Source of the DNA: a virus
DNA: 64,000 bases
Direction: 5' to 3' (one strand)
IMG/VR virus record: IMGVR_UViG_3300006048_000003
Part shown: one piece after another, positions 2,701 through 51,902 of the stretch
Layout of the letters: the number at the start of each line of letters is the position of its first letter
Position numbering within the stretch: the first letter of the stretch is position 1
Made by a program: the position numbers and the translations under genes
The notes under the pieces: model-generated
The model's input: only the letters and a program-made list of their open reading frames with translations
Told to the model about the DNA's origin: nothing
Databases searched by the model: none

Positions 2701-2736
2701 GCAGACACCCCACTGCAACGGGTTAGTAGTTGCAAC
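2701..2736 (+). repeat. Dispersed CRISPR-repeat-like unit (only copy in + sense; upstream of a + strand gene)
   Basis: GCAGACACCCCAC-TGCAAC-GGGTTAGTA-GTTGCA-AC; 25 nt before ATG 2762; identical to 30492-30527. Confidence 0.9.
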
Positions 2737-5575: not shown

Positions 5576-5611
5576 TTTACTCCTACGAACCGGGAGTAAT
5601 CGGTGTATGCC
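5576..5611 (-). repeat. Dispersed repeat-like unit (covariant stem)
   Basis: Sense GGCATACACCGAT-TACTCC-CGGTTCGTA-GGAGTA-AA; 32 nt before GTG 5543. Confidence 0.75.
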
Positions 5612-5625
5612 CGGAACAACACTCA

Positions 5626-5661
5626 GTTGCAACTACGAACCCGTTGCAGTGGGACTTTACC
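5626..5661 (-). repeat. Dispersed repeat-like unit, tandem with 5576-5611
   Basis: Sense GGTAAAGTCCCAC-TGCAAC-GGGTTCGTA-GTTGCA-AC; contains the stop codon (5657) of the upstream ORF. Confidence 0.9.
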
Positions 5662-6169
5662 CACGCAGATTCTGGTACGCACGCATGGTCGCTTCCTGAA
5701 CCCGATCTACCAGTTCCCGCCAGGCGTCGTGATCGTTCTCGATATCGATCCCCGTGTCTCGTGCCAGACCATCCAAATATCCATTGTCATGCCCTTCATA
5801 CGGCTCGAAATCCCCTACTGATGTTTGATTGGGATACCACACACCCTGCCGCATCCCACCCGCGATCCCGGCAGCTTCGTTTTCTGAGTTGGCAGATTGG
5901 TCGTCATGAACAATCCCACCACCAACGCGAACGTGATTCCCCAAATGAGTCATCACGGAGCCATTGAGGAATCCACCATGATCCCTCAACTGCATATTGG
6001 CGAGAGCACCATCAATCCGTTTCCATGCCGCCTCGTCGGAGCGTCCGTTCTCGTCTAGCCAATCCGCGTAGACCCAATGACGGGTGGAATCATGTGGATT
6101 CTCGTCAATAGATCTCTGGAAATCACCATCGGAATGGGAGTAATTCGTGGGCTGCACGTTTGTAGTCAC
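5657..6169 (-). CDS. TIGR02996-like domain protein flanked by repeat units
   Basis: IDENPHDSTRHWVYADWLDENGRSDEA; SD GAGGAG before GTG 6169. Confidence 0.7.
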   Translation of the reverse strand: MTTNVQPTNYSHSDGDFQRSIDENPHDSTRHWVYADWLDENGRSDEAAWKRIDGALANMQLRDHGGFLNGSVMTHLGNHVRVGGGIVHDDQSANSENEAAGIAGGMRQGVWYPNQTSVGDFEPYEGHDNGYLDGLARDTGIDIENDHDAWRELVDRVQEATMRAYQNLRG

Positions 6170-6190
6170 GATGACTCCTCGTCGGTTGGA

Positions 6191-6226
6191 TTTGCAGCTA
6201 CAAACCCACTGCACTGGGATACCCAA
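6191..6226 (-). repeat. Dispersed repeat-like unit
   Basis: Sense TTGGGTATCCCAG-TGCAGT-GGGTTTGTA-GCTGCA-AA; between portal stop (6233) and GTG 6169. Confidence 0.85.
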
Positions 6227-9547: not shown

Positions 9548-9583
9548 TCTACTTCAATCGACCCGAAGCAGTGGGATTGTCAG
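9548..9583 (-). repeat. Dispersed repeat-like unit (covariant stem)
   Basis: Sense CTGACAATCCCAC-TGCTTC-GGGTCGATT-GAAGTA-GA. Confidence 0.75.
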
Positions 9584-9598
9584 ATACTACAGCGACGA

Positions 9599-9634
9599 GT
9601 TGCAACTACTAACCCGCCACGGTGGATTGCTTGT
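9599..9634 (-). repeat. Dispersed repeat-like unit, tandem with 9548-9583
   Basis: Sense ACAAGCAATCCAC-CGTGGC-GGGTTAGTA-GTTGCA-AC; the TAG stop of ORF 9609 lies in the loop. Confidence 0.8.
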
Positions 9635-9908
9635 TCAGCTTCGGATCGACCTTCGTGGGTGTCGGTACGGGTTCCACCGTCGTCTTCGACTTGATGTAGT
9701 CCGCACACGCCTTCAATAACTGCGACGTCTGGCCGTAGAAGAACGCGGGGGAAGGATGTCCTGCCATCAGAGAACCACCCAGAGAGGCTTCTGCTTGCCG
9801 GTCGATGCCGGATGCCGTCTCGTCACACATTTTGATGAGCACAGCCGGATCAGTCAGATCCGGTGCTCCGGGGAAATCCAATCGAGGAAGCGGGGATGTC
9901 TCAGTCAC
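9609..9908 (-). CDS. Hypothetical protein (99 aa) lying between repeat units
   Basis: SD CAGGAG before GTG 9908; ORF track gives 9609..9983. Confidence 0.6.
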   Translation of the reverse strand: MTETSPLPRLDFPGAPDLTDPAVLIKMCDETASGIDRQAEASLGGSLMAGHPSPAFFYGQTSQLLKACADYIKSKTTVEPVPTPTKVDPKLNKQSTVAG

Positions 9909-9939
9909 GAAAATGGTCTCCTGTTGTTGAAATTTACTG

Positions 9940-9975
9940 TCTGCTTCAATTGACCCGAAGCAGTGGGATTGTCCG
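9940..9975 (-). repeat. Dispersed repeat-like unit (covariant stem)
   Basis: Sense CGGACAATCCCAC-TGCTTC-GGGTCAATT-GAAGCA-GA. Confidence 0.8.
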
Positions 9976-9997
9976 CCAGACACGATCCTTCATCGCC

Positions 9998-10033
9998 TTC
10001 ACCCCTACAAACCGGGAGCAATCGGTTGTTCTT
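9998..10033 (-). repeat. Dispersed repeat-like unit, tandem with 9940-9975
   Basis: Sense AAGAACAACCGAT-TGCTCC-CGGTTTGTA-GGGGTG-AA; the TAG stop of ORF 10005 lies in the loop. Confidence 0.75.
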
Positions 10034-10286
10034 GACTCTTCGCCAACGTCTCCAGTGTATTCCCACCCGACAGCAAAGCACAGACGATCTTTTCCACGAA
10101 GAGTGGGGAAAGTTCATACTGGCCATGCTGATTCAGGGCGTAATACACATTCTTCCCTGACGGTTGGAGAGGCTGTTCCCCTTCCACCTTCGGAAGGGTG
10201 ACGCCCTTGAAGTTCTGGAGTTGGGCAAGAATCTTGGCGAGTCGTTGGGACTCTTGCCCCACAGCTAACATATCAATCGGATTCAT
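10005..10286 (-). CDS. Hypothetical protein (93 aa) directly after the last array repeat
   Basis: SD AAAGGAG before ATG 10286. Confidence 0.65.
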   Translation of the reverse strand: MNPIDMLAVGQESQRLAKILAQLQNFKGVTLPKVEGEQPLQPSGKNVYYALNQHGQYELSPLFVEKIVCALLSGGNTLETLAKSQEQPIAPGL

Positions 10287-10314: not shown

Positions 10315-10789
10315 GTTGCAACTACTAACCCGTTGCACTGGGATTGTTACGTCTCTTCTGTGTGAGGCACCAACCCAGCGGCTTGTGGTTGCAACTACAA
10401 ACCGGTTGCACTCGGTATGTCACGCCGACGCCGAGCAGTTGGCGGCACTCGAACGCAAGTTGCAACTACAAACCGGTTGCACTGGGATTGTTACCTAGCT
10501 TCGACTTCCGTGCCGCATTCATTGCTTCGCCCCTCGATTGCAACTACTAACCCGTTGCACTGGGATTGTTACGATGCTTGTGCTGCTTGTGGTTGTCCAC
10601 TCGAAGATGTTGCAACTACTAACCCGTTGCACTGGGATTGTTACCGAAATAAAGGTTCGGGAACTCTGCCATAGGCGCCGTTGCAACTACTAACCCGTTG
10701 CACTGGGATTGTTACAGCCGTCGCCAGGTCCGGCGGCACGAGGAGGCCGGTGTGTTGCAACTACTAACCCGTTGCACTGGGATTGTTAC
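10315..10789 (-). CRISPR. CRISPR array: 7 repeats (36 nt), 6 spacers (35-42 nt)
   Basis: Sense consensus GTAACAATCCCAGTGCAACGGGTTAGTAGTTGCAAC. Repeats start (+ coordinates) at 10315, 10388, 10459, 10537, 10609, 10680 and 10754. The most variant copies are leader-distal; the leader/promoter lies between the array and the cas gene. Confidence 0.97.
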
Positions 10790-10793
10790 TGCC

Positions 10794-10822
10794 ACTCTAC
10801 AACACGCCCGCTTCCCAAGCAA
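10794..10822 (-). promoter_or_regulatory. Sigma70-like promoter of the array
   Basis: TTGCTT-17-TAGAGT; the -10 element ends 4 nt before the first repeat. Confidence 0.65.
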
Positions 10823-10911
10823 ATTATTCCTGTTCCGCGAGCGGTTCCCAATTTGACCCATGATCCTTCACATTGAACCCCTATCAAGCGGGGGGTCATC
10901 GCCTGGAAATC

Positions 10912-12816
10912 CTAGACGCGAGCGGGTACTTTCGCCCCAGAAGCCCCCAAAGCCCTGTTTAACAAGTTCGTGGCGGCATTCACTGCCCGATCCCTCTTTT
11001 CACCACCACAGGACTCGCAGCGAATCCAGCGGCCCGACTTCGGGTGGTCACACGATTCCCCACACTGACAACACGTCGTCACGATGTTCCTGGCGGACTC
11101 AGTAACTTCGTTCATGTATCTTGTTATCTCGTCCCGGAGTTGGGCACAGGAAGACAGTGCCCGATATCGCTTGTTGACGATATCGTTCCCGTTCTCGACT
11201 TCAGGATTCTCAGCCAACTTGTTCCAGTCAATTTCCGCGATCACCACGTCCTTGTACTGATAGCTCAGGTCAATCGCCACTTTTCGGAAGAAATCCTTCC
11301 GCCAGTTCTTGATCTTGTCCCGCTTGTGTGCCCTCCAGTCGCACAGGTGTTTGCTCTGCAAACGCCCCCCGGTGTACTGATTCCTTCCCGTGGTTGGGTT
11401 GAGTTGGATTCTCCCCCACATTCTTTGGAAGATCTCTTCGTCTCCGGGAATCCGATGATCCTTCCACCACCAAATGAGCCACATGAACCTGTCGGCACTT
11501 CGCCACTGAATCAGAGTCTGGGCACGCTCGGTCCACTCTTCGGGAAGGGGATTCGGGTAGTTCACGAACCAGTCGACCAGTTCAGCCCTTTCAGCTTCAA
11601 ACAAGGTATCCCGAATGGACTGGAGGGTGTCAAGATAGGACCACCCCTCCACCAATTCTTTGGGAATACGGACGGTTCCGGTCACACCATCATCACCAAC
11701 CCACTCGGTAACGCGGATTTCCCCATCAATCAGACGCCAACCCAACGCCACCGCGACAGTCCCTTCCTGTGCCCGATCCTGTCCGGCCGGGTGATACGTC
11801 CACGCATCCCGTGCGATGTCGAACTGAACATCCCACCGGTAATGAGTTCCAATCTTCCTGCGGGACAGGTGAACCCACTTCACTTCACCGTCTTCGGGGA
11901 GAGGACGCGACATGACAGCCGGAATCGACGCCATCACCGGCTTTCCCTTTTCGTCCGACGATACACGAAAGTGGATGACGACGTACTTCGGATGGGGAGC
12001 CGTCAGCGGTGGTTGATACGTCCTTTCGATCCAGCAATTCGTGTTGGGGGTGAAGACATCACAGGTCCGAAGAGATGACCCCCCCACGTGAGCGAACGTT
12101 GGCTTCTTGCTGCGTGGATGGATCTTGGGATTGCCTTTGGAGTCCAAAACTGGCTCCTTCGGGGATGTCTTGTCGGGCTTCCGTTGGAACTGAACCGAGA
12201 TAACTTCCTCCCCCCGCCACGACTTGAACTTCGGGGGTGGGCCGGTTCTCTTTACACGTCCCACCACTTGCAGGGAAGTAGCCCAGTACAACCCACCTTC
12301 CACCGCCGCGTTGCGGGCATCTGCCTTTCGTTGTTCAAACGACTTATCGTTGTCCTTCAGGTCGGCTTTCACCTTCGGGTCGGCAAACGCGGCGTCCCGC
12401 TGATCAGAATAGAACTCCCATGCCTGGGACACCACACGCTTCTGAGCGTTGATTTGCTCCACTAGTTCGGGGTCTGACATCAACTGCCGGTTCTGACTGT
12501 TCGACTGGCTGAGTTCATCCCGAAGCTCCTGGAGGCGTTCCTGCTGCTCCTGGGCTGCGTTGTGGAGGGTCGTCAGAGCCGGAAAGTGTCTGACCAGGAT
12601 TGGGTCGATGGCTTCCCTGCGGGCACGCTCGATTTCTACCAACTTGTTCTGGAACTGGTGAGCGAGCTTCATCTGGGTAACTGCCAGGTCGTGTCCATCG
12701 AACCTCTGACGGAGGGCTTTCGTGCCGTCAGGATTGATTTCACGCGGACCGGAAAGGAACCCCCGGCAACCGTAGTTGTACTTGCGAGTCGGTTTGCTCT
12801 TGTTACCGAATGCCAT
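10912..12816 (-). CDS. cas12m: Cas12m-like (type V-M/V-U1) effector, 634 aa, predicted nuclease-dead
   Basis: N-terminal YNYG...QMKLAHQFQNKLVEIERARR, GLYWAT and PKFKSWRGE...SVQFQ resemble Cas12m. RuvC-I VAVALGWR, RuvC-II VVIAEIDW, RuvC-III DRAVNAATNL, CxxC/CxxC zinc ribbon. Adjacent to the array; SD GGAG before ATG 12816. Confidence 0.85.
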   Translation of the reverse strand: MAFGNKSKPTRKYNYGCRGFLSGPREINPDGTKALRQRFDGHDLAVTQMKLAHQFQNKLVEIERARREAIDPILVRHFPALTTLHNAAQEQQERLQELRDELSQSNSQNRQLMSDPELVEQINAQKRVVSQAWEFYSDQRDAAFADPKVKADLKDNDKSFEQRKADARNAAVEGGLYWATSLQVVGRVKRTGPPPKFKSWRGEEVISVQFQRKPDKTSPKEPVLDSKGNPKIHPRSKKPTFAHVGGSSLRTCDVFTPNTNCWIERTYQPPLTAPHPKYVVIHFRVSSDEKGKPVMASIPAVMSRPLPEDGEVKWVHLSRRKIGTHYRWDVQFDIARDAWTYHPAGQDRAQEGTVAVALGWRLIDGEIRVTEWVGDDGVTGTVRIPKELVEGWSYLDTLQSIRDTLFEAERAELVDWFVNYPNPLPEEWTERAQTLIQWRSADRFMWLIWWWKDHRIPGDEEIFQRMWGRIQLNPTTGRNQYTGGRLQSKHLCDWRAHKRDKIKNWRKDFFRKVAIDLSYQYKDVVIAEIDWNKLAENPEVENGNDIVNKRYRALSSCAQLRDEITRYMNEVTESARNIVTTCCQCGESCDHPKSGRWIRCESCGGEKRDRAVNAATNLLNRALGASGAKVPARV

Positions 12817-12844: not shown

Positions 12845-12880
12845 TTCGCAGCTACCAACCCGCTGCGATGGGAACAGGCA
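12845..12880 (-). repeat. Repeat-like unit in the cas12m 5' UTR
   Basis: Sense TGCCTGTTCCCAT-CGCAGC-GGGTTGGTA-GCTGCG-AA; a perfect alternative 6-bp stem between the -10 element and the SD. Confidence 0.8.
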
Positions 12881-12909: not shown

Positions 12910-12910
12910 A

Positions 12911-14542: not shown

Positions 14543-16551
14543 TTTCGTGCTCCTGTCGCAAGAACGGTGTCTATCAACGAAGGTGCCCGATTGAGTTCCT
14601 GCTCCGACGCTAACTTCTCGTCTATTTCCTTGAGTGGAATCACGGACATTCGGCAGTAGGTATCGTCCACTCCAAGAGAAATGAACAGATTGCTTCCGTG
14701 AACCACAGCCCCACCAGGCCAGCAAACGAACCGCTTCACCACGTTGTCATTGTCTTTGCTGTCTGGCCAAAGCAAAGGAGTTGGTGTCTGTCTCCAGACA
14801 TTGAACGGTGGTTCGGGATTGAATGCCACACAGCCAGCGGAATACACACTGCCTTGCAGACGCTTCCGGCACCCGTGTACAATTGACCACATCTCGTAAC
14901 GCTGTTCCTTCTCACTCCACACTTTGATCGGGGACGCTCCACCTCGAATGACCCCACCTGCCCAGGGCAACTTGTTCGGAGTACGCCACGTCTGGCGGTC
15001 GGACATCACGATCATTTCCGGCTTGTGTGCGTAAACCCAGTGAATTTTCCCGTTGTGCTCCCACGCGACCCAGTTCTTCTCATACTTGTTAGAATTTGGT
15101 GACTCGAATACGAAGGTGTCCTCGATGCTTTTAAGGTCATCTGCGAACCGGACGTATCCGACCTGCACCAGCTTCGGGGGATACCCGTCCGGCAAACTGA
15201 ATGAAGCGTGGAGTCTGCCTTCGTACAGAAACAGTCGGGGGTCTTCGAGTCGGGTGGCCTGAGCGTGTTTCGATGCCAGCGAGGATACAGCCGTCACAGA
15301 CCATTCCCCAAGCCAGTCTTCCTGGGTGTTCTGCAACACCCAAATTCCAGTACGGCTATGACCCCAACTGTCCCGCGTGGCGAGGATCAATTGCCCCCGA
15401 TACTCTGCCACCGAACAATTAAAGTGTCCGTCCGGAACGGGAAGTCGAGTTCTTTCTACGTCAGGTGTCACGAACTGTCGGTATTCACACGTCTCGCAGG
15501 ATCGCACAGGAACGTCGGCTTCCTTGATTTTGGCCCCCACCTTCGTGAAGCAGTGATCTCCGTAACGACCACACTTCGCCAGAGGTATCGTCCTTCCCCC
15601 TTCCAGGACACCGATTTCGTTGCTCCACTCCGACCGGTACATACAGGGAAGTGGGTCCGAATATTGGAGTATCACCTGATCCATCTCCGGGGTGATGTGA
15701 AGAGGATCTTGAATCTCCCGTCCCGTCAGGAGTGCCTGGACGTCCCCGTGGTGCCTGCTCTCCGTGACACCGAGGGGTAACGATGGTTCGCTGCTACTAA
15801 CCCGCTGCGATGGGTCTGGGGCAGTTCGTGTGACATTTCCATCGGAATTAACCCCCGATAGTGGGTTGTCGCTAACGTCGATACAGGATGGTGCCCATTC
15901 CGGTTTCCCGGTGCCTGCGTAGTCGAATGTTCGCTGCGTTACAATGGACGGGAGGACCGCACACCAGTTCAAAAGTCCCTTCTTCAGGACACGTTCCCAG
16001 AGTTGCTGATCCAGGTTCCGGTGTGCCGCCCGCATGTGCTCCAGAAGAACCGGGAGAGCACGTCTGCGGAGCATAATGGCGTGTGTGCCGAAAGGTTCGT
16101 TTAGTCTGCACAGACGCGAATCAGGCAATCCAATGCGTTCCGTCACCTTGTTCCAGCAATTAGGCTGCACTTCTGCGGAGCCGAGAAACACCAGATCCCA
16201 CTCCGGGAAGTCGGAATAGAGTTGGCGTTGGAGCAGTTCCAGTTCAGTGTGGTAGTTCTCAGGGAGGGAGACGTCGTCCTCGAAGATGATGTATTCGTGA
16301 TTGTCGCGATGAACCCACTCCTGACCCGACAACCAGATGTGCTGCCAGAGATTCCACGTCGAAAGGTTGAGAGAGACGTGACCAGACGGCAGGTGCTTTC
16401 CCGGCTCGTATTCGAGTGTGGTGGAAAGTCCCCAAGTACGTCCGTGGCTGGCCTTCCAGTACGTCGCGTCAATCCCCCGCTCTGCAAGGTGTTCCTTGCA
16501 GGCTTGGGTTCGTTCGGGAAGCTCTTCGCAGTGAATCACATAATACTTCAC
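14539..16551 (-). CDS. GT25-like glycosyltransferase fused to a GH130/GH43-like beta-propeller
   Basis: N-terminal YYVIHCEELPER...IIFEDDV; C-terminal FNCSV...LEDPRLF...EKNWV...IRGGASP...CWPGG; GTG start 1 nt after the previous stop. Confidence 0.7.
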   Translation of the reverse strand: MKYYVIHCEELPERTQACKEHLAERGIDATYWKASHGRTWGLSTTLEYEPGKHLPSGHVSLNLSTWNLWQHIWLSGQEWVHRDNHEYIIFEDDVSLPENYHTELELLQRQLYSDFPEWDLVFLGSAEVQPNCWNKVTERIGLPDSRLCRLNEPFGTHAIMLRRRALPVLLEHMRAAHRNLDQQLWERVLKKGLLNWCAVLPSIVTQRTFDYAGTGKPEWAPSCIDVSDNPLSGVNSDGNVTRTAPDPSQRVSSSEPSLPLGVTESRHHGDVQALLTGREIQDPLHITPEMDQVILQYSDPLPCMYRSEWSNEIGVLEGGRTIPLAKCGRYGDHCFTKVGAKIKEADVPVRSCETCEYRQFVTPDVERTRLPVPDGHFNCSVAEYRGQLILATRDSWGHSRTGIWVLQNTQEDWLGEWSVTAVSSLASKHAQATRLEDPRLFLYEGRLHASFSLPDGYPPKLVQVGYVRFADDLKSIEDTFVFESPNSNKYEKNWVAWEHNGKIHWVYAHKPEMIVMSDRQTWRTPNKLPWAGGVIRGGASPIKVWSEKEQRYEMWSIVHGCRKRLQGSVYSAGCVAFNPEPPFNVWRQTPTPLLWPDSKDNDNVVKRFVCWPGGAVVHGSNLFISLGVDDTYCRMSVIPLKEIDEKLASEQELNRAPSLIDTVLATGARK
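15787..15822 (-). repeat. Repeat-like unit embedded in frame in an inter-domain linker
   Basis: Sense GCCCCAGACCCAT-CGCAGC-GGGTTAGTA-GCAGCG-AA; canonical loop; closely resembles 12845-12880. Confidence 0.65.
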
Positions 16552-16552
16552 T

Positions 16553-17419
16553 TCACACCCTCGATGGTCCTGTTGCCGTTCCAATGACCCAATCAAGTGA
16601 ACTCGAATGTCCCGCAGGAACTGCCCGCCCCTCAATGTCTGAAGTGATTGGATCATTGTGTCGAATCGGAGCCGGTCCCGCATCCAGTGTGTCCACACCC
16701 TGACCGCCTGAATTCAATCGCACGTCAACCATCGGCGGCAGGCACTCAAATTCAATCCCTGGCCACACGTCGCAAGTATAGTGATCGAGTTTGCCCTGTA
16801 CGGGAACCATCGGGCGGAAACTATCCCAACCACGCACACGGAAGTACTCAGAATAGGGAAACGGACGAGACTCGAAGAACTCTCGCACGTTCGTGTGCTG
16901 AAGTGCATTCTCCCCAATCGGGAAACCGGAGTGCGTAGTCAGCTTCACCTTCTGAATTGGCTGTGCGGTATCCGGACAGGGGGAAAACAGCCCCTCATGA
17001 CCACAGTCCCGCTTATTTGGATGCCACACCAACTGATCCGCGTGCTTGAGGAAGTCTTCGGCTGAGCAGGTTACGTGCGATATGAAACCACGAGTGAATT
17101 CCCACTTGTTTGGCACCAATAAAACAAATGGACGCATACTCTCCCACAGCTTATCAGTCAACTCCCGCTCGCGGTCACGAAGACCAGGCAATCTCGCCTT
17201 CTCGTCACACACAGAACAGTGAATTACACAGCAACTCGCGTCATCGTGCGATGCTGCGTATTCAATCTTCGCCAACTCTACCTGCACACGAATAAACTCT
17301 GCTCGCTCCGACTGACCATGCTCCTCGTACCAGTCCGCCATCGCCAGACGCACCGAATCCTCATCCGGATTGGTGATGATGGATCGCAGGAGTAGATTAA
17401 AGTCGTTCATATTATTCAA
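16553..17419 (-). CDS. TIGR02996-like domain protein
   Basis: LLRSIITNPDEDSVRLAMADWYEEHGQSERAEFIRVQVELA. Confidence 0.8.
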   Translation of the reverse strand: MNNMNDFNLLLRSIITNPDEDSVRLAMADWYEEHGQSERAEFIRVQVELAKIEYAASHDDASCCVIHCSVCDEKARLPGLRDRERELTDKLWESMRPFVLLVPNKWEFTRGFISHVTCSAEDFLKHADQLVWHPNKRDCGHEGLFSPCPDTAQPIQKVKLTTHSGFPIGENALQHTNVREFFESRPFPYSEYFRVRGWDSFRPMVPVQGKLDHYTCDVWPGIEFECLPPMVDVRLNSGGQGVDTLDAGPAPIRHNDPITSDIEGRAVPAGHSSSLDWVIGTATGPSRV

Positions 17420-17433
17420 CGGCAGTTCGACGG

Positions 17434-17469
17434 ATTACAACTACGAACCCGTTGCACTGGGATGCCGAC
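17434..17469 (-). repeat. Dispersed repeat-like unit
   Basis: Sense GTCGGCATCCCAG-TGCAAC-GGGTTCGTA-GTTGTA-AT; 14 nt before ATG 17419. Confidence 0.85.
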
Positions 17470-17479
17470 TCCATTTCGC

Positions 17480-17515
17480 TTCCCACCTACGAACCCGATG
17501 AGTTGGGTTGACTCT
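17480..17515 (-). repeat. Dispersed repeat-like unit, tandem with 17434-17469
   Basis: Sense AGAGTCAACCCAA-CTCATC-GGGTTCGTA-GGTGGG-AA; all 6 pairs valid with G-U; the TAG stop (17487) lies in the loop. Confidence 0.65.
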
Positions 17516-17738
17516 CCAGAAAATCAATTTCACTGTCGATCCACTTCTGCCCCTCTCCCCGAATCTCGTCAATGTCAAATATGGTAGACCCAATATCCGA
17601 AATGTTAACTTGGAAGTATGTCCTTTCCGGACCACACCAAGAAAACCGGATGTGATGTCCACGATAAGCCATCACCACTTCCGGGGAATGTGGTGCGTTG
17701 GGCATCATCAGTAGCCAATCGTAGAATTCCGACGTCAT
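17487..17738 (-). CDS. Hypothetical protein
   Basis: 83-aa ORF. Confidence 0.55.
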   Translation of the reverse strand: MTSEFYDWLLMMPNAPHSPEVVMAYRGHHIRFSWCGPERTYFQVNISDIGSTIFDIDEIRGEGQKWIDSEIDFLESQPNSSGS

Positions 17739-17953
17739 TTCTGCCCCTCAATGGCGTCTCCGATAGCCCGGCAGATTCCCTTCTTGTGGTTGCATGTGTA
17801 ACGCTTAGCTGAGTCACGAGCGACCTGGGCCGAATTCCTCTGGACCTGCTTCAACGCAGCCAGAATGATTTCCTTCGACATGATGTTTGGGTAGATGTCA
17901 AGAGAAGCCGCTACGTCATTTGCAGCTTTCTGGGCTTGTTCTTCCAGCGTCAC
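17735..17953 (-). CDS. Hypothetical protein
   Basis: GTGA overlap with the upstream stop. Confidence 0.5.
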   Translation of the reverse strand: MTLEEQAQKAANDVAASLDIYPNIMSKEIILAALKQVQRNSAQVARDSAKRYTCNHKKGICRAIGDAIEGQK

Positions 17954-18183
17954 GATTTCTTCTCCCGCTCCGCTATGCAGAGCCGTTGGAGTTGTCTGCC
18001 CAGAACCGTGGTGAGAATGAACTGATACTCCACGACCGTCAGATTGTGTTCCTGAATCCACGGGTTCAGGAACTTCAACAGTTTCTCAGCAGCGGACTCG
18101 ATGGCCCGGTCACGAGGATGGACTGGCTCCACAATCCCCGCCAGATCGACCTGTGGTGCTTGTTTGGTCTGATCGTCTGTCAC
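17950..18183 (-). CDS. Hypothetical protein
   Basis: 77-aa ORF. Confidence 0.55.
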   Translation of the reverse strand: MTDDQTKQAPQVDLAGIVEPVHPRDRAIESAAEKLLKFLNPWIQEHNLTVVEYQFILTTVLGRQLQRLCIAEREKKS

Positions 18184-18566
18184 ATGCCACCATCTTTCAC
18201 GGTAACAGGACGAAGATTGACAGTGGCTTTAATTTTCCCACCACTACTGTTCTGTCGAGCGGTGGCCACCTGCCAGTAGCTGCCTGGACTTGAAGGTAGA
18301 GTCAGATACCCATTACTGGAACAAATCAGAATATCCCCATCCCGAATTATTCCAACAAATTCCGGGTCGATTGCCACCTCACAGTCACTGCCCAGACCGT
18401 AGCAAAGTATCTCTCCATTGATGACGGGACCGGAAATTCCACAACAACGACTGTTCGGATTGCCCAACAAACAGTGTCCGTAACGATGATGATCCAACAT
18501 AACCGCACGTCCCACTGGAATCAGTGGATTAGCAGGGAACCAAGCGTCGTTGGGATTGATAGTCAC
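18180..18566 (-). CDS. Hypothetical protein
   Basis: GTG start re-called downstream of the repeat unit. Confidence 0.5.
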   Translation of the reverse strand: MTINPNDAWFPANPLIPVGRAVMLDHHRYGHCLLGNPNSRCCGISGPVINGEILCYGLGSDCEVAIDPEFVGIIRDGDILICSSNGYLTLPSSPGSYWQVATARQNSSGGKIKATVNLRPVTVKDGGM

Positions 18567-18590
18567 TATGCCATCCGCCCTTTGAGGGAT

Positions 18591-18626
18591 TCCACATCGA
18601 TAAACCGGATGCGTTCGGTTTAGTAG
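18591..18626 (-). repeat. Dispersed repeat-like unit (divergent)
   Basis: Sense CTACTAAACCGAA-CGCATC-CGGTTTATC-GATGTG-GA; contains the TAA stop (18620) of the upstream gene. Confidence 0.6.
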
Positions 18627-19120
18627 TTCATGGATGTCACCCACCACTCAGAGCCAATATGAAATACCGTGTGGTGCCCCAAATCAATCAACCCCAAAAC
18701 GGAAGGACGATACTCTTTGGGGGGTGGAACGTACTCTAATGCAAAGAAACTCACATTGCCTGTATCGGAGGTGATGAGCCACTTTAAGCATTCCGGAGCG
18801 GTATCGTATGGCCACACCCGCTGCACAGTATCGACAGATCCCGGAGGAACGCCACACACTGCCAGGATGTAAGTGAGGGGTATCAGTTCCAAGAAACCTT
18901 TGTTGTCGTCATTCTTGCCAACTGCCCATGGTTCCGTCTTTTCGTGCTCTCCGATCTCTTCCCGTCTCCACAATACAACGGATTCTGGATACTTCCTCAT
19001 CCACTGAGCCAGTTCGGGCTTCTCCTTCTCGTCCAGGAAGTCCGCGAATACACCCTTCGCCACGTGATCGGTGGGGTACAGTGCGATCTGCTGAAGGAAT
19101 TCCAGTTCGTCGTGTTCCAT
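18620..19120 (-). CDS. TIGR02996-like domain protein
   Basis: FLQQIALYPTDHVAKGVFADFLDEK. Confidence 0.7.
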   Translation of the reverse strand: MEHDELEFLQQIALYPTDHVAKGVFADFLDEKEKPELAQWMRKYPESVVLWRREEIGEHEKTEPWAVGKNDDNKGFLELIPLTYILAVCGVPPGSVDTVQRVWPYDTAPECLKWLITSDTGNVSFFALEYVPPPKEYRPSVLGLIDLGHHTVFHIGSEWWVTSMNY

Positions 19121-19124
19121 GTGG

Positions 19125-19667
19125 CTACTTGTCCTTCAGGTCCATTCCGGAATCGTCGTTGGCTTCGATCTCACGTTCCCGCGTGGCTTCCTCAATCCTC
19201 CGCATCGCCTCATCGAAGAACTCACGAACAATCGGGGAGACTGGAACCACTCGCCCTTGATCGTCCAAATGAACCATTTGTCCTGCCTGGATATCCGATC
19301 CGGCGGTGTATTGCTGTGTACCCCACACACCCACTGTGGTCTGCGTTTTCGGTTGCTTGTCTGCCTTATCCAACTGAGCGGCAAGACGCATCAGTGAGGC
19401 GTTCATGTCGAATACATCGAACCACAACCAATAAAGCAGGTTCATCTGAAGAACTTTCCACGCATCCCCATAAGAATCAGGAGAAAAAGCGTTCGTCAAC
19501 GCGATATTCAGTGTCCCCGTCAGTCGGCACGCATCTTCATGACGATCCTGAATCTTCAGTTCGTCCAGCAGAGCACCGACGACCGAGAAGTCACGCTCGA
19601 AGATGAGCTTCTCAGCCATCAGACCGATATTCGTGGCAGCGGCACGGGGAATGTCAGGAAGTTTCAT
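19125..19667 (-). CDS. Hypothetical protein
   Basis: Start re-called at MKLPDIP. Confidence 0.55.
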   Translation of the reverse strand: MKLPDIPRAAATNIGLMAEKLIFERDFSVVGALLDELKIQDRHEDACRLTGTLNIALTNAFSPDSYGDAWKVLQMNLLYWLWFDVFDMNASLMRLAAQLDKADKQPKTQTTVGVWGTQQYTAGSDIQAGQMVHLDDQGRVVPVSPIVREFFDEAMRRIEEATREREIEANDDSGMDLKDK

Positions 19668-19694
19668 TTTTAGACCTGTAGACGGTTTCTGTTG

Positions 19695-19730
19695 GTTGCA
19701 ACTACAAACGCGTCGCACTGGGATTATTCC
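19695..19730 (-). repeat. Dispersed repeat-like unit
   Basis: Sense GGAATAATCCCAG-TGCGAC-GCGTTTGTA-GTTGCA-AC; contains the TAA stop (19724); 27 nt before ATG 19667. Confidence 0.85.
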
Positions 19731-24700: not shown

Positions 24701-27614
24701 GGAAATCCGCGAATGGTCCCAGTCCCGATGCATCGTTCTGGGACACGATTCCATGCATCATCGCGTCGTGAGTATCAGGATCGCCGGATTGAACGTAGTG
24801 CGTTCCCATGTGCTCGTCGTAGGACTCCGTGACGTCCGTATCCCCGAAGTCGTAATTCGTCCTTCCGTAACGCGAGAAGTTCACATCCTCACTGACTTCC
24901 CGCTGTTCCAACCCAGAAGCCTGCTGGGGAACGGGTGGATGTGTCTGGGACAGTTGATGTGCTGTCTGGTGAGCCTGCTGTGCCGCTTTCTCAGGGAATT
25001 CTCCCACATTCCCATGAACACCTGCTTCGTGGGATATCCCCCCTGTGTCGGGATGGAACTGCCAGACGTCGTGAGCTTCCTCCCCGTCATGACCCTCGAA
25101 ATCGTCACGGGACGTGAAGTAGACGCCCCCAGGACCACTATGGGGTTCCCCGTGGGAGGTGTGACGCTCACCCTGATTGTTGACCCACCCGTAGTGCTCG
25201 TTGGGGAACATCTCGTTGAAGTGGGACGTCTCCCCGTTGGCTTTACGGATGTCGTCCCAGGTGTAGTGCGGACCTGCCTTTACTTCCCCCGTCTGCGGGT
25301 GTGTCGAAATCCAGGCGTTTCCTTGATGGGTTCTCAGGAAGTTCAGTGTGTCCGGGTGGACGGTATGAGGAGCGTAGTCCTCCAACCAATCAGCATAGAT
25401 CTGCCTATTTACTGCGTCATGAGGAGCTTCCTGGGCACGTGCCTGAAACGCCTGGTGGGAGTAGTCAGTACGGGAATACGGGGTTTTGTTCCTCCAATAG
25501 TCCCTATCGGGGTGTTCCCCACCTGAAAACCCTCCTGCGGAATCCCCGGTATCGTCGTAATTCGACTGCTCATCTTCGTCCTCGTTGTACCACCTGTCGT
25601 GGTTTGGGGAATCCTGTCCATCCCCACCCGCTCCAGAGCCACTGAATCCGTACATGGAGCCGTCTGCGTCGTCGTACCGGGCGTTCTGTTCGGGTGGTGT
25701 CTGGGACTCCAGGTATTCGGCTGAATTCAACAGACGAGCACGCAGGGTCGGGGACACCTTCGGATGATCTGCCCATTCTCGAAGGGATGGGGCATCCATG
25801 ACAGCAGTGTGGGACGGAAAGGACAGACTTCCGCCCGTTCTTCGGTGAACCAGGGCACTTCCGGGAACGTCAGTGGACCGGATAGTCCATGTCTGGTCCC
25901 CATCACGAACAACTGTGCTTGGTTCCCCTGCCAATTGTGCCTTGTGGGAAATGCCCTGCTTGTTGTGAACAAGCGGAGAACCTGATTCGACCAAGTTCCG
26001 GTAAAAGGGAGCGTGGGGTTCCCCGGCTTCATCCAGTGCATCTGCCAAGACCCCCCCGGCTGTGGTGTCCTGAACGTAGTTGTGGTTGTACTCGTCAGCC
26101 CACTGTCTTTGACTGTTCTCAACCCCCTGACGAATGGTTTCCCCTAAATCGAGGGTGTACATCGTCCCTGTGTGGCCACCAGATTGCGTAGGAACGTCAC
26201 TGTGGGGCGAAAGGGGGTCCGGATGGCCAAAGTGTGCGTAGAGGTGCGAAACTTCGTCTGGAGTCATTGCAGCACTGTAAGACGGCTCATCATTCTCCGT
26301 AGGGGTCCAATTAACGGCATGAACGACAGGTCGGGCTTCTGCGTCTGATGCCCACTTCTGACTCGCGGGATACCAGCCACCCGTCAACTGCAACGTACCG
26401 CCATCCCCCGTTGGAACGACACGTCGAGATGTGCCGTCGTGTGGATGCCACCGATGATCAACCGGACCACCCGCAAGCTGTTCCGCATGGCGATGCAAAT
26501 TCCCCAACCATCCATTGCCCACCCCATGATGACTCGGATTGTCTGCGGAACTCCGATACGACACATCCCTGTCCACAATCGTGGCTCGTGGATCGTCGTG
26601 GTCGGCTAACTTACCCACCAAGACATGATCCACGTAGGCATTCGGGTCCATGCTCCCGGCTCCGGGTGCGGAGTTCAGAATTTCATGGATTTCATTGATA
26701 GGAGCCGCGTAGTCGGTTGGGTCTCCATCGGCATACCGTGAAAACTGTCGTCCTGCCTGAGCTTGCTTGGGGAACCCTGCCGGGGATACCCAGGGAGAAC
26801 CGAACTGTTCCAGGCTTTGAGTTGATCCGGGGGCGATACTTCCGGGGATTGTGGGTGGGGGAAGTCTCATGTCGGTGAAGGACGGGTAGCCGAAGGAATC
26901 GTCGTCGTAACGGCTTAATTGCTGGGGTTCTTCATGATCCTCTGGCAAGTTTGGGTCGGCGTGGTAAACATGCTCGATGGTCTTCTGTCGAACGTGCTCA
27001 GGAAGATCGGCTAGCATCTCGTTCAGATGGCGGTGGGACAGCACAGGGACACGGTAATCAATTCCGATTTCCTGTGGGGCAGAATAGGAGTTATGATAGA
27101 TACGTAGATATGAGCCAGTTCGAGGTTCCTTCACAGGAACCTCCCTTTTTACAGCCTGAATACTCGCAAATCCCGGAACATCGTGTCGGTGAACAGGATC
27201 GATATAGACATTCGCTTCCCCATTACTGTCCCTTATGGAATCGACGTCCTCAGTATGATACAGCCTTTGGAACCCATTCGGACGATACTTGGCTCCTTCC
27301 GCCATCAACAAACCCCCTGGCTGTCCGTACTGCTGAAGATGGTCCGCCAACATCGCCAGGGGAGTACCTTCATGTTCATCCGCTGTCAGAACTGCATTGT
27401 GTAGCTCATCGTGAACCTGCCGGAATTCATCATCGTAATTCGTCGGTTCATTGGAATACTGAGCGTAACAGTCGTAGCTTTGGAACTCCGGATTCGGATA
27501 CACGTTGCAACTACTAACCCGTTGCACTGGGATAGGCATAAACTCCTGCAACCCCTTCAGGAAAATGTGAAGGGCGTCCTGAACCTGCTGGAGGGCTTCG
27601 TATTCCGGATTCAC
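21714..27614 (-). CDS. 1966-aa modular (polyvalent-like) protein with about 9 TIGR02996-like modules
   Basis: Recurrent xADxLxExG motifs, two clearly paralogous internal modules, recurrent [SA]RY[DSAG] linker motif; lies between terS and terL. Confidence 0.75.
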   Translation of the reverse strand: MNPEYEALQQVQDALHIFLKGLQEFMPIPVQRVSSCNVYPNPEFQSYDCYAQYSNEPTNYDDEFRQVHDELHNAVLTADEHEGTPLAMLADHLQQYGQPGGLLMAEGAKYRPNGFQRLYHTEDVDSIRDSNGEANVYIDPVHRHDVPGFASIQAVKREVPVKEPRTGSYLRIYHNSYSAPQEIGIDYRVPVLSHRHLNEMLADLPEHVRQKTIEHVYHADPNLPEDHEEPQQLSRYDDDSFGYPSFTDMRLPPPTIPGSIAPGSTQSLEQFGSPWVSPAGFPKQAQAGRQFSRYADGDPTDYAAPINEIHEILNSAPGAGSMDPNAYVDHVLVGKLADHDDPRATIVDRDVSYRSSADNPSHHGVGNGWLGNLHRHAEQLAGGPVDHRWHPHDGTSRRVVPTGDGGTLQLTGGWYPASQKWASDAEARPVVHAVNWTPTENDEPSYSAAMTPDEVSHLYAHFGHPDPLSPHSDVPTQSGGHTGTMYTLDLGETIRQGVENSQRQWADEYNHNYVQDTTAGGVLADALDEAGEPHAPFYRNLVESGSPLVHNKQGISHKAQLAGEPSTVVRDGDQTWTIRSTDVPGSALVHRRTGGSLSFPSHTAVMDAPSLREWADHPKVSPTLRARLLNSAEYLESQTPPEQNARYDDADGSMYGFSGSGAGGDGQDSPNHDRWYNEDEDEQSNYDDTGDSAGGFSGGEHPDRDYWRNKTPYSRTDYSHQAFQARAQEAPHDAVNRQIYADWLEDYAPHTVHPDTLNFLRTHQGNAWISTHPQTGEVKAGPHYTWDDIRKANGETSHFNEMFPNEHYGWVNNQGERHTSHGEPHSGPGGVYFTSRDDFEGHDGEEAHDVWQFHPDTGGISHEAGVHGNVGEFPEKAAQQAHQTAHQLSQTHPPVPQQASGLEQREVSEDVNFSRYGRTNYDFGDTDVTESYDEHMGTHYVQSGDPDTHDAMMHGIVSQNDASGLGPFADFLEEQGMPGAHLARQAYWHSRDPEQMRPPFYPGLWFPYDYSIQLPSVVEDGTPGPHGPTPHQQIGLTPHISKKYYDTGARSGALTVTHAPHGNPLRFGNGGYLQYHVPVDSKEHLAHLTQDLPEPMRQAIHAYMEPHLPSQPDFQPQMMSRYSRTDYVSEQELPAMLSSISPRAWRGWQHEQSPHFDMTPRLVAADYLDDLHADTGNQDYARQAAILRDTRKHAYLDPDGGIQDAHALSQQLHRQYRPNIQGYMIRPDHLEPGFQQYMDTALWSSTDPDAGEPLDENHTYHNIHPATMAAMLADFRHFRATNQEKLADTSSGSSDHAHDFWVSRNGHGAGFWEKPEVYGDHGYDLQDAAEKHGEHDLYVGSDGMIHGSYEVQPTQDEPTQAARYSRMDYMTSEEDFHRMLDETPHDHQTRMILADYLEDQNDPRAAGYRALGMHRRYATHWNPKAEGYDGQPYPESWDWGHDENSHYPNVSNALPRDWLDAMESTNPSYANAQDREYWTHHESRRAADDAAALGFARLHPERQAELLGQSQQTQAAQYSDTAWSSGGGTLHEDHSDFRGKDKPFEGQRYYPEAYQESVNYDYSPPQQEWQERDDIADWVSQSRTHLNNYPNLSPVMEQDGDQRYSMYARTDYSHEAFHHAIQEHPNDTVARGVYADWLEEKDPNSVSPDTLHFLRNHPGDAWVAHHPQTGEVHAGAIPTFDDIRKANGEEYGWTAAYGGHPSKHYGFFPSFGVEGSGEHIPHGPVHSGIGGHYFVTEGEGFPENPNPHRYDVWKFHPQDGGISLRMPSRWMGHSQEEAHRNANELSQTPPVAPAPAPRLSEDTGEEHLSLYADDDSSQEQWTDPHAAFQASIYPELGGNPLDPMGHYVYSDFLREQGHHDEADFRQAMGDWHSQNHGMYDPQQYLSLKNADAQQFPHRIYSGSLPSGVDPEHLPQYRQSHRDGDFYTAPDHVPRFIGMQYSWPTYKGMEAAFHQSFMANRQQGQTG
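27504..27539 (-). repeat. Repeat-like unit in frame near the N-terminus of the 1966-aa ORF
   Basis: Sense ATGCCTATCCCAG-TGCAAC-GGGTTAGTA-GTTGCA-AC encodes MPIPVQRVSSCN; preceded by GGAG. Confidence 0.9.
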
Positions 27615-47468: not shown

Positions 47469-47584
47469 ACATACTCCGTGGAACTACCATCCGCACCTAC
47501 AAATCAGGCACGGTTTAGTGACAATTCTATGGCAGGTCACATGCTTCCGCGATTACGAACTCGTCGCGGTGGGAATGGTTTGAG

Positions 47585-47726
47585 TGGTTCCGCAGGGAAT
47601 CGAACCCTGTAGCAGTGCGTTTACGCCTCCGCACCATCAGCCCTTTTTTGCCCCCGCTTTACACAGCACCTATCGCTGCTTCATCGTGGGATGGGTTTTA
47701 CGTTGTCCCCAGCAACGCCCGGAACC
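47585..47726 (-). ncRNA. tRNA-like RNA (142 nt) with canonical acceptor stem and T-arm
   Basis: GGTTCCG...CAGGG-TTCGATT-CCCTG-CGGAACC-A; enlarged interior, no clear anticodon. Confidence 0.55.
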
Positions 47727-47932
47727 TCCGTGCCGCTGTGTCTTTCCACTGCGGCGGTAATGTCACAGGTGTCCAGGCCATTTCGGGTGACTGTCCCCAC
47801 ACTACGTCGCCTGGCTTGACGCTACTTCCCCCTAGTCGTCTCAGGGTTTTCGATTTCCGGCTTTTTCATTCCCTCTTGCGAGGGCGGGTCGATCTCCAAG
47901 ACCAGTTCGCGACGGAAAAGTTCTGTGTTCCA

Positions 47933-48415
47933 TCATCCCCGACAACCAACTCCCCTGCTCCGAAATCGCTTGAACGGACAGAGGGTAGTGACCCGTTCAT
48001 TCTTCAATCCCACCAGGGGAATCAGTGGATCGGTCAGGATCAGCCCCTCGACGTAATAATCGACGGCGGGCATGTTCTTCAGGTAAACTTTGATGTCGAC
48101 CGTTCCTTTGGGCCAGTTCGGTCCGAATGACCACGCGAAGATGTTCCCCTTGACGGCACATTTACCCTTGTCGAGTAATTCAGGTTCCAGACTCCAGATC
48201 TCGTAATTCACCGGCTCGTTTTCCGGTTCGACGGTTCCGCTGAATCCCCAGAACCCCCCTTTGCCCATCGGGACGGTCTCGTTGTCTTCCGGGACGTTGA
48301 TTTTCAGTTTGTTGACGAGGGACTTGCTGGAAACCACCTTTCGTTCAGGAACAAGGGAAGTCGCAACCGCGAAGATCACTACCAATCCCATCAGGGTTTT
48401 CATCAAGTGCTCCAT
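47933..48415 (-). CDS. Putative secreted/membrane protein
   Basis: N-terminal hydrophobic segment. Confidence 0.5.
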   Translation of the reverse strand: MEHLMKTLMGLVVIFAVATSLVPERKVVSSKSLVNKLKINVPEDNETVPMGKGGFWGFSGTVEPENEPVNYEIWSLEPELLDKGKCAVKGNIFAWSFGPNWPKGTVDIKVYLKNMPAVDYYVEGLILTDPLIPLVGLKNERVTTLCPFKRFRSRGVGCRG

Positions 48416-48443
48416 GCGTGAAAAAGTTCTGACCCCTAATCAA

Positions 48444-48583
48444 AGATCTTGGAAGGAATCGAACCTTCCGTCTCTGGCTATTGAACGTGGCCTGACCGGT
48501 ACTACGTGCTGCGTTGATAGCAGCATCATTTAACCAGCGGAGCCTAATTACGCCAGCGGGTTCACCAGAACCACCCCAAGAGC
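48444..48583 (-). ncRNA. tRNA-like RNA (140 nt) with expanded anticodon loop
   Basis: GCTCTTG/CAAGATC (6/7), GGTTC-TGGT-GAACC, CTGGC...GCCAG, GAAGG-TTCGATT-CCTTC. Confidence 0.5.
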
Positions 48584-48724
48584 AACTGCTCGACTTTGCT
48601 AACCATGTGTGACTGTCAAGCAAGCCACACTTGATTCCCTCCGATGACACCAAATAAAGTCAGGACTCGCCAGTCACGCCCGCACCTCAAGAGATCGCAC
48701 CTTCTGACCAACGAGTCCTGACAG

Positions 48725-48798
48725 TGGTAACGCCGGGACTCGAACCCGGAACATCAGGGTTAGAAACCCCGTGCTCTATCCATTTGAGCTACGCTACC
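48725..48798 (-). tRNA. tRNA-Arg (anticodon TCT)
   Basis: GGTAGCG acceptor, GCTC/GAGC D-stem, CGGGG-TTTCTAA-CCCTG, GGTTCGAGTCC T-arm; CCA not encoded. Confidence 0.9.
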
Positions 48799-48800
48799 AA

Positions 48801-48917
48801 TCCGAAGCAATCAAAGTAGTGAGTTCCTGAGTCGCACAGGACGTCTCATCACACCTTCAGGGGCAGATCGCTAGCAACCTTCCCCCGATCCGGCCGGATA
48901 ACTTTGACTGCTTCGGC
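48801..48917 (-). ncRNA. Putative structured small RNA heading the tRNA cluster
   Basis: CCGAAGCAGTCAAAGT/ACTTTGATTGCTTCGG 16-bp closing stem with internal hairpins, starting just after a promoter. Confidence 0.45.
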
Positions 48918-48923
48918 ACCACT

Positions 48924-48952
48924 CTTATAGTCCACATTTCCGTGAAAGGCAA
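48924..48952 (-). promoter_or_regulatory. Sigma70-like promoter of the RNA cluster
   Basis: TTGCCT-17-TATAAG. Confidence 0.65.
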
Positions 48953-48953
48953 A

Positions 48954-50099: not shown

Positions 50100-50133
50100 C
50101 GCTTGCCTTTTGTCGTGACCACGCCGAAGCCGT

Positions 50134-50169
50134 GTTACGGCAACTAACCCGCCGCAATGGGGTACTAGT
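50134..50169 (-). repeat. Dispersed repeat-like unit directly after a promoter
   Basis: Sense ACTAGTACCCCAT-TGCGGC-GGGTTAGTT-GCCGTA-AC; 34 nt before ATG 50099. Confidence 0.75.
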
Positions 50170-50197
50170 ATCCTACCCTGTAATACACATAAGGCAA
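50170..50197 (-). promoter_or_regulatory. Sigma70-like promoter
   Basis: TTGCCT-16-TAGGAT. Confidence 0.5.
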
Positions 50198-50308
50198 ATT
50201 CATTTCGAGTCACGGTCTGACTTTATCGCGAACGTTGCTTGCTTCTCTGTGTCTTACAGGGGTATAGTATTTGCACACAAGACGCTTCGCCCGACTGGAG
50301 GTGACAGA

Positions 50309-50494
50309 ATGACTCGGGAAGATCGACTCCGACTGGCTGAGTTCCTGGCGAGGGAACCGCTCGTCTCTGAAGAAGAAGCTCGCAGCGAACTGGGACTGAC
50401 TCCGAAGTGGATGGAAGAATTATCTTCCCCGACCACTCCGGAACCGAAAAAGGAAATCCGTCGTCCTTCGGATCGAAAGCCAGTGCTTGCCTAG
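50309..50494 (+). CDS. Small protein, divergently transcribed
   Basis: SD GGAGGT before ATG 50309; promoter TTGCTT-18-TATAGT at 50239-50268. Confidence 0.55.
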   Translation: MTREDRLRLAEFLAREPLVSEEEARSELGLTPKWMEELSSPTTPEPKKEIRRPSDRKPVLA

Positions 50495-51879: not shown

Positions 51880-51902
51880 GGTGGACGACCTTCCGTGATT
51901 TC

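Follow-up and report, generated by a model that had tools for sequence, protein, structure and literature searches.

A phage-borne type V-M effector with alanine at all three RuvC catalytic positions, and repeat handles dispersed through the phage genome

What can a CRISPR effector do for a phage once its nuclease site has lost every catalytic residue? The question is raised by a locus on the minus strand of a 64,000-nucleotide stretch of viral DNA (IMG/VR record IMGVR_UViG_3300006048_000003; this whole stretch is called the window below), in which a cas12m-like gene is followed by a CRISPR array. Our answer, to which we give a probability of roughly 0.65, is that the gene product, P0001, is a type V-M effector with a fully ablated RuvC site, which would bind DNA without cutting it when loaded with CRISPR RNA (crRNA), and which probably also binds the handle RNAs of the phage itself, i.e. 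units with the fold of the repeat that lie outside the array. The locus is composed as follows.

10912..12816, minus strand: cas12m-like gene for P0001, 634 amino acids, RuvC-inactive (translation, PDB sequence matches, AlphaFold2 model and Foldseek)
10790..10911, minus strand: array leader with two weak sigma-70-like matches, not above chance (promoter scan)
10315..10789, minus strand: CRISPR array of 7 repeats, each of 36 nucleotides (nt), with 6 spacers 35-42 nt long; the fifth repeat has 2 substitutions and the sixth has 6

The open reading frame (ORF) from 12816 to 10912 translates into 634 amino acids with the motifs VAVALGWR, VVIAEIDW and DRAVNAA. A 694-residue reading from an upstream GTG is the alternative; the ATG at 12816 is the start chosen by gene callers on identical contigs, and it opens the MAFG...PTRKY motif common to all relatives. 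The Pfam search gave nothing above threshold, and NCBIfam returned weak matches to the C-terminus of TnpB (22 bits against a cut-off of 425). The best sequence match in the PDB was 23vw_A, deposited as a Cas12m DNA-binding protein (phmmer E 1.3e-43), with Cas12m2 next and 8pm4, 8hhl and 8hio among the matches. When the profile of the P0001 clade was compared with the PDB, 23vw was matched at E 2.7e-82, GoCas12m (8pm4) at 1.9e-43 over residues 30-619, nearly its full length, and 8hhl at 1.4e-42. The AlphaFold2 model, built with 28 sequences, reached a predicted local distance difference test score of 87.5 and a predicted template modelling (TM) score of 0.78. Foldseek placed Cas12m2 and GoCas12m at ranks 1-4 (TM 0.69-0.76; 8hhl 0.71/0.76), with Cas12f as the next family at 0.35-0.44 and TnpB also far behind. 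The model has the WED domain, the helical REC lobe with a long insertion, the RuvC domain with a helical insertion and the zinc ribbon of the Cas12m fold, and from end to end its REC and WED lobes can be aligned with those of DNA-binding Cas12m. By sequence and by fold, P0001 is a member of the Cas12m (type V-M) family, and the sequence match, the fold and the phage genes of the window together bear out the preliminary description of this DNA, which had proposed a Cas12m-like effector encoded by a phage.

11746..11748, minus strand: codon of A357, RuvC-I position (canonical proteins have D, GoCas12m and MmCas12m have H), from alignments
11236..11238, minus strand: codon of A527, RuvC-II position (E or D in relatives), followed by E528, from alignments
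10984..10986, minus strand: codon of A611, RuvC-III position (the second D of DxD-x-NAA), from alignments and from the sequence read directly
11008..11073, minus strand: zinc ribbon CxxC...CxxC with C582, C585, C600 and C603, invariant columns

That description had read all three catalytic positions as alanine and had doubts about the register of RuvC-II. Three independent alignments now place A357, A527 and A611 at the D/E/D positions. The pairwise phmmer alignment sets VAVALGWR on AAIDLGWR, VVIAEI on IVLEEF and DRAVNAA on DQDYNAA of 23vw_A, with the three alanines facing D, E and D. The profile alignment to GoCas12m (8pm4) fills the same columns with the H, D and D of AVHLGWR, VVDDSD and YDTDLSA, in agreement with the published triad H322-D497-D590 (PMC11013384). 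In the MAFFT alignment of 167 family representatives, 94 have D-E-D at these columns and a minority N-x-D, H-x-D or other combinations. The RuvC-II register is thereby settled: the catalytic glutamate corresponds to A527, and E528 is the acidic residue that usually follows at +1 in the family (ED, EE). Since E528, D530 and D609 are the ordinary +1, +3 and -2 neighbours of the catalytic residues in D-E-D relatives, they are not substitutes for the triad. The zinc ribbon is intact, as had been supposed, and its four cysteines are invariant.

The characterised Cas12m proteins, among whose sites are the canonical D-E-D and also H-D-D and N-D-D, bind DNA flanked by a protospacer-adjacent motif (PAM), silence genes or block plasmids and phages, and in no case cut double-stranded DNA (PMC11013384). 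Clades with H-E-K or H-Q-K sites have also been described (PMC10442227), and the site types described comprise H-E-K/H-Q-K, H-D-D, D-E-D/N-E-D, D-N-D and N-D-D. The triad of P0001 falls outside all of these types, and no mention of an Ala-type clade was found in the literature searched. As family members differ in their triad, which is no defining trait, A-A-A is a new variant that leaves family membership unaffected. The earlier premise that Cas12m proteins have a non-canonical RuvC site, do not cut and silence by binding is therefore right about cutting and incomplete about the site, as D-E-D members exist. The further argument, that a triple alanine is a fuller loss and so makes a binder, stands with regard to the complete loss of the triad; the step to a new activity does not, as D-E-D Cas12m is already non-cutting. 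Because all characterised Cas12m proteins already bind without cutting, we regard the triple alanine as a new site variant and not as a new function.

How old and how widespread is the loss? A word-indexed search returned 25 relatives with 37-68% identity, in which positions I and III are alanine, rarely serine, glycine, leucine or methionine, and position II is alanine in nearly all, the exceptions being P0014 and P0021 (glutamate) and P0013 (glycine). An exhaustive search of representatives brought the family to 2668 members in total and added further Ala-type rows, so that the Ala-type site is present in at least 33 representatives (36-68% identical). When 182 proteins were placed in a tree, a branch with a Shimodaira-Hasegawa-like support of 99 set the 33 Ala-type rows apart from all others, and a single change suffices to explain the alanine state, in comparison to about 31 when the labels are shuffled; the Ala-type site has a single origin. 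The tree neighbours of the clade are mostly D-E-D, and the deeper nodes have little support. The members of the clade are identical at 52 columns, and their mean column identity is 47%, which indicates long-term constraint after the loss of the site and no decay.

The Ala-type branch is phage-borne and has been seen only on phage-like contigs. The contexts of four lineages were inspected (the window and the contigs L003, L004 and L006); all are phage-like, and in each cas12m is followed by a CRISPR array. Relatives on long contigs adjoin portal genes, and one relative is itself an IMG/VR record. No clade member was found by a pattern scan of species genomes (one genome each of 185,579 species). 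The lineage of P0014 (L006) has an A-E-A site. Cas12m in itself is frequent on viruses: 24 IMG/VR viral contigs of 7-202 kb (loci L008-L030) encode Cas12m-like proteins, most of them with an array directly downstream, and their sites are mostly D-E-D and in some cases H-M-D or N-D-D.

If the site is dead, is the guide machinery still in order? The array starts 122 nt past the cas12m stop codon on the same strand, and with its seven repeats and six spacers it is intact, as the preliminary description had it. The claim that the array has its own promoter is not supported, as the two sigma-70-like matches in the leader compare with 1.3 expected from shuffles. The arrays behind cas12m in L003, L004 and L006 have 8, 8 and 15 repeats, and in the P0014 lineage arrays stand on both sides of the gene (L006:5453-5969 and L006:8063-9132), the last upstream repeat doubling as the leader handle. 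The absence of cas1, cas2 and cas4, also noted at the outset, was upheld in so far as none of these families was found in about 46 window ORFs scanned or among Pfam matches within 10 kb on either side, with about a dozen small ORFs outside the scan. Likewise, no sign of a trans-activating CRISPR RNA (tracrRNA) was found, in keeping with the earlier view: Rfam gave no match, and the surroundings of the locus hold no antisense repeat. In two samples with one and the same P0014 protein, the stretch from the gene to the following ORF differs in length by 965 nt, about 13 repeat-spacer units, and this difference in array length indicates that spacers turn over despite the lack of adaptation genes.

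Across the phages and units compared, the repeat forms a 3-bp pseudoknot helix and a 6-bp hairpin, with 98% of cells paired. Seven of its nine pairs have changed on both sides in a compensatory manner, and no shuffle or slid register comes close. These pairs coincide, position for position, with the -28..-26/-15..-17 and -23..-20/-3..-6 pairs of the PmCas12m crRNA. The processing of pre-crRNA by Cas12m is independent of RuvC (PMC11013384); thus, the dead site is no argument against crRNA maturation.

The spacers were searched against several collections; the scans used exact words, by which mismatched targets would be missed. The whole array gave no blastn match in 50,697 phage records, exact 22-mers of all six spacers were absent from IMG/VR, and spacers 1 (28-mer) and 5 (24-mer) were absent from JGI metagenomes. 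The 22-mer of spacer 1 had three exact matches in GTDB, in three unrelated metagenome-assembled genomes from three phyla; these were rejected as protospacers, as all of them cover a DTGLLVPP glycosyltransferase motif and end after 23-24 nt. Spacer 1 itself (10716-10753, minus strand, leader-proximal) has a GC content of 71%, in comparison to 54% for the phage, and translates as TGLLVPPDLATA, which resembles the GxLVPP region of GT4-type glycosyltransferases. Self-targets in the window were limited to seeds at chance level, and among the fetched loci no cross-targeting was found except for a self-match in L003, the closest relative. There, spacer 1 (L003:7907-7941) copies, in inverted orientation, the 3' end of the cas12m gene of that locus (L003:7824-7856, the DRAVNAA region), matching at 30 of 33 positions with the first 10 nt perfect and a 5'-TTC flank on the non-target strand; it has no match in IMG/VR. 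As a single observation, the flank hints at a TTN-type PAM like those of MmCas12m and GoCas12m, and the spacer would fit self-repression or the targeting of the same conserved region in rival phages.

The part that a specialist would find surprising lies outside the array, and beyond the positions considered in the preliminary description, which dealt with effector and array alone. With a covariance model of the handle built from 24 units, we found 21 units outside the array at E < 0.01 in the window, 10 of them absent from the training set. The 26-nt core of the repeat, with at most three mismatches, occurs 13 times, where none is expected, and six of these occurrences are outside the array. 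The solitary units on their own have 92% of cells paired, in comparison to 74% in shuffles, and 42 cells with a double change, in comparison to 14. All of them lie in the sense of the local genes, 20 on the minus strand and one on the plus strand before a plus-strand ORF.

12845..12880, minus strand: leader handle of cas12m, ending 28 nt before the ATG, with stem CGCAGC/GCTGCG and not TGCAAC/GTTGCA (covariance model E 9e-8)
9548..10033, minus strand: four handles (9998-10033, 9940-9975, 9599-9634, 9548-9583) bracketing the small genes orfA and orfB
2701..2736, plus strand: solitary handle, the sole plus-strand unit, 25 nt before the ATG of a plus-strand ORF
5576..6226, minus strand: handles 5576-5611, 5626-5661 and 6191-6226 at the junctions around the gene 5657..6169, just past the portal gene
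15787..19730, minus strand: handles 15787-15822 (inside an ORF), 17434-17469, 17480-17515, 18591-18626 and 19695-19730
27504..30527, minus strand: handles 27504-27539 (perfect 26-nt core, at the start of a 1966-residue gene), 30443-30478 and 30492-30527
47546..54973, minus strand: handles 47546-47581, 49599-49634, 50134-50169, 54391-54426 and 54938-54973

The placement of the handles is not arbitrary. Many of them stand 14-34 nt before a start codon, including that of cas12m; a Shine-Dalgarno-like (SD-like) motif with a start codon 10-40 nt downstream accompanies 10 of 22 units, whereas 2000 trials with random positions gave 2.8 on average and never more than 9, and several further units fit the start-codon placement by eye. 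The SD motif falls inside the would-be guide segment of the handle units, and the stop codon of the upstream gene is often inside the handle loop. In four of four lineages a handle stands in the cas12m leader, in L003, L004 and L006 at distances of 27, 36 and 32 nt and each time with its own compensated stem, and the position after the portal gene is kept in L003. The dispersed handles, including that in the leader of the effector itself, suggest an added or alternative role of the protein on the phage's own RNAs.

Lone handle-like units occur also in L015, a viral Cas12m locus with a D-E-D site, where two were noticed outside the array (L015:5798-5825 and L015:10733-10760), one of them 83 nt before the effector start and with a compensated pseudoknot. 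As the P0014 lineage is nearly without handles and the D-E-D locus L015 has lone units, the scattering is no simple correlate of the alanine site.

Taken together, how would such a protein act? As all the other family hallmarks are present in the Ala-type protein, the same action as that of known Cas12m is the most economical reading. By analogy, P0001 would mature and load the crRNAs of the array by the RuvC-independent route known for Cas12m, and the complex would bind complementary DNA flanked by a PAM without cutting it, and thereby block transcription or replication of the target. The likeliest targets would be competing phages or other mobile elements, and host genes less so. Since the same handle fold heads its own mRNA and about a dozen other phage genes, P0001 probably also binds these RNAs, which may provide feedback on its own synthesis and affect the processing or translation of the genes that bear handles. 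A stronger version, in which the dead Cas12m forms a phage-wide circuit at the handles of phage mRNAs, its own included, and cuts, stabilises or translationally gates about a dozen genes, is possible, with the odds against it. If it were true, a CRISPR effector would have come to regulate viral gene expression by way of RNA handles, and this change of role would be mirrored in the complete loss of the RuvC metal site.

Four observations weigh against crRNA-guided DNA binding joined to handle binding. The collections searched yielded no protospacer for any of the six spacers, so that the repression of host or competitor genes proposed at the outset gains no support from these searches. In H-D-D Cas12m2, the RuvC pocket holds the non-target strand via one Mg2+ ion; an all-alanine pocket cannot do so, and by analogy the stability of the R-loop could differ or be lost. 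The handles are densely scattered in this lineage and in L003, whereas the 39-kb record of the P0014 lineage has almost none. Finally, the sequencing runs that contain the phage are DNA runs, and no RNA run containing it was found.

Alternatively, P0001 may act mainly on RNA: it would bind, and perhaps cleave at, the handles in polycistronic phage transcripts, punctuating them and controlling translation of the downstream cistron, with DNA targeting secondary or lost. This reading draws on the 21 sense-strand units with their conserved fold, their enrichment 14-34 nt before start codons with the SD motif in the would-be guide segment, the stop codons of upstream genes in handle loops and the leader handle kept in four lineages; it would also suit this reading that the metal site by which H-D-D Cas12m holds the non-target strand is wholly gone, and that the spacer searches gave no DNA targets. 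However, all lineages retain arrays with 6-15 unique spacers of ordinary length, and these arrays differ from sample to sample, which is difficult to account for if no targets are recognised, and the REC and WED lobes match those of DNA-binding Cas12m throughout. Moreover, the P0014 lineage combines a dead site with almost no solitary handles, and L015 has lone handles in the presence of D-E-D. We therefore consider a mainly RNA-acting protein unlikely.

A role in counter-defence is considerably less probable. Here, the dead effector would soak up the crRNAs of a host Cas12m, or the lone handles would be RNA anti-CRISPRs against a host type V-M system. There are precedents for both, as solitary repeat units of phages act as RNA anti-CRISPRs (PMC10651486) and for a RuvC-dead Cas9 encoded by a phage, a role as crRNA sponge has been proposed (PMC11656645). 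On the other hand, the lone units match the array of this very phage and change in step with it from phage to phage, a decoy would not be expected to hold a fixed place before start codons, the phage retains spacers of its own, and a V-M system of the host is hypothetical. That P0001 is still a nuclease, by means of residues outside the triad or of a recruited partner, is hardly plausible: E528, D530 and D609 remain near the site and the phage encodes a PDDEXK endonuclease and other nucleases elsewhere, away from the cas12m locus, but the three residues are ordinary neighbours in D-E-D relatives and no replacements, even D-E-D Cas12m does not cut DNA, and none of the four lineages has a nuclease gene linked to the locus. 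A decaying remnant without function, for which the loss of all three catalytic residues might speak, can be dismissed as contradicted by the strong conservation of intact ORFs in at least 33 diverged relatives, by the confident predicted fold and by the co-evolution of arrays and handles with the gene.

The preferred reading, a DNA-binding V-M effector that probably also binds handle RNAs, has to be seen in its genomic setting. The source is a soil or rhizosphere phage of about 104 kb: in other samples, the identical sequence is found on two contigs, of 28.6 kb and 103.9 kb, and it is also present in several rhizosphere DNA runs. The window encodes portal, TerL and TerS proteins, a UvsX-like recombinase, SSB, a family A DNA polymerase (PolA) in two parts, the thymidylate synthase ThyX, a DnaB-like helicase, a clamp-loader-like ATPase and a DNA methylase. 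The DNA contigs that were compared with the window show mainly assembly breaks at repeats. A soil metagenome of 2021 (run X6) holds a strain that is about 90-95% identical over positions 9400-13000 of the window, and in its contigs, parts of the array and the orfA region are left out or replaced. The two parts of the polymerase, ORFs 38916-40379 and 44382-45752 (both on the minus strand), match different parts of one family A DNA polymerase PHROG, with thymidylate synthase and other genes between them. The portal fusion protein (6233-9433, minus strand) and the 1966-residue protein (21714-27614, minus strand) carry TIGR02996 domains above the curated cut-off, and the Gemmata origin of the TIGR02996 model suggests a planctomycete host.

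10005..10286, minus strand: orfA, 93 amino acids, starting 28 nt after the last array repeat, with its stop codon in the loop of the next handle; kept in L003
9609..9908, minus strand: orfB, 99 amino acids, starting 31 nt after the handle 9940-9975; kept in L003

The two small genes orfA and orfB are set between handles directly after the array, with counterparts at L003:8152-8424 and L003:8650-8952. Neither they nor a neighbour of 202 amino acids matched a Pfam or PHROG family; orfA and orfB could encode accessory or anti-defence proteins. A GC-rich hairpin followed by a T-rich run (9445-9491, minus strand), recognised by eye and with the terminator scan silent, closes the block of cas12m, array, orfA and orfB just before the portal gene.

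With its A-A-A proteins, the Ala-type clade adds a fifth active-site type to Cas12m. A branch restricted to phages that has kept its RNA-guided machinery long after the loss of all catalytic residues would be a clean natural case for binding as the selected function, and its A-A-A members, as natural compact scaffolds of the catalytically dead Cas kind with no residual metal site, may be of interest for CRISPR interference and base-editor design. The handles before the effector gene and many other phage genes offer a concrete and easily tested model for CRISPR effectors that act on a virus's own RNAs.

Among known systems, P0001 is closest to the Cas12m proteins themselves (MmCas12m2, 8hhl/8hio; GoCas12m, 8pm4; 23vw_A; PmCas12m), with which it shares a size of about 600 amino acids, the order WED, REC, RuvC and zinc ribbon and the long helical insertion in REC. 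Its locus shares with type V-M the 36-nt repeat with the same pseudoknot and hairpin scaffold, the lack of a tracrRNA and of adaptation genes, carriage on mobile elements and, as expected by analogy, DNA binding without cutting. It differs in the A-A-A triad, which leaves no acidic residue for the Mg2+ ion by which H-D-D proteins tether the non-target strand, in the occurrence of the branch only on phage-like contigs, and in the handle that heads its own mRNA and the many lone handles in the phage genome. Phage carriage as such has been seen before: MvCas12m of the myxophage MV-1 keeps D305/E463/D555 (bioRxiv 10.64898/2026.09.14.751636), and V-M systems in prophages are mentioned in a review (PMC11656645). 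These systems likewise combine a phage-borne Cas12m with an adjacent array, no cas1/2/4 and no identified targets, but MvCas12m is D-E-D whereas the P0001 branch is Ala-type.

The TldRs (TnpB-like nuclease-dead repressors) are also naturally RuvC-dead descendants of TnpB/Cas12; they are RNA-guided repressors, and some are phage-encoded. In contrast to P0001 with its array, they use a single adjacent omega-type guide and no CRISPR array, and P0001 is far nearer to Cas12m (E 1e-43) than to TnpB (NCBIfam 22 bits, cut-off 425). TldRs are recognised by a TnpB-like size, a single omega-type guide without an array and linkage to fliC or oppF; P0001, with 634 amino acids, a linked array and weak matches to TnpB models, does not fit this description. 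Cas12k of the type V-K CRISPR-associated transposons and Cas12c are type V effectors that bind DNA without cutting as well; no Tn7-like tnsB, tnsC or tniQ was found among the neighbours in the four lineages, and Cas12c needs RuvC for crRNA processing whereas Cas12m does not. The dispersed handles, finally, resemble the cr-like RNAs, the viral solitary repeat units and Racr, i.e. lone repeats outside arrays that often lie upstream of the effector gene, as they do in about a third of V-A loci and also in other types. The handles of this phage differ from them in their number, 21 in 64 kb, in matching the phage's own effector, whereas Racr repeats mimic the CRISPR repeats of the host, and in their sense orientation at gene junctions with the SD motif in the guide-equivalent segment.

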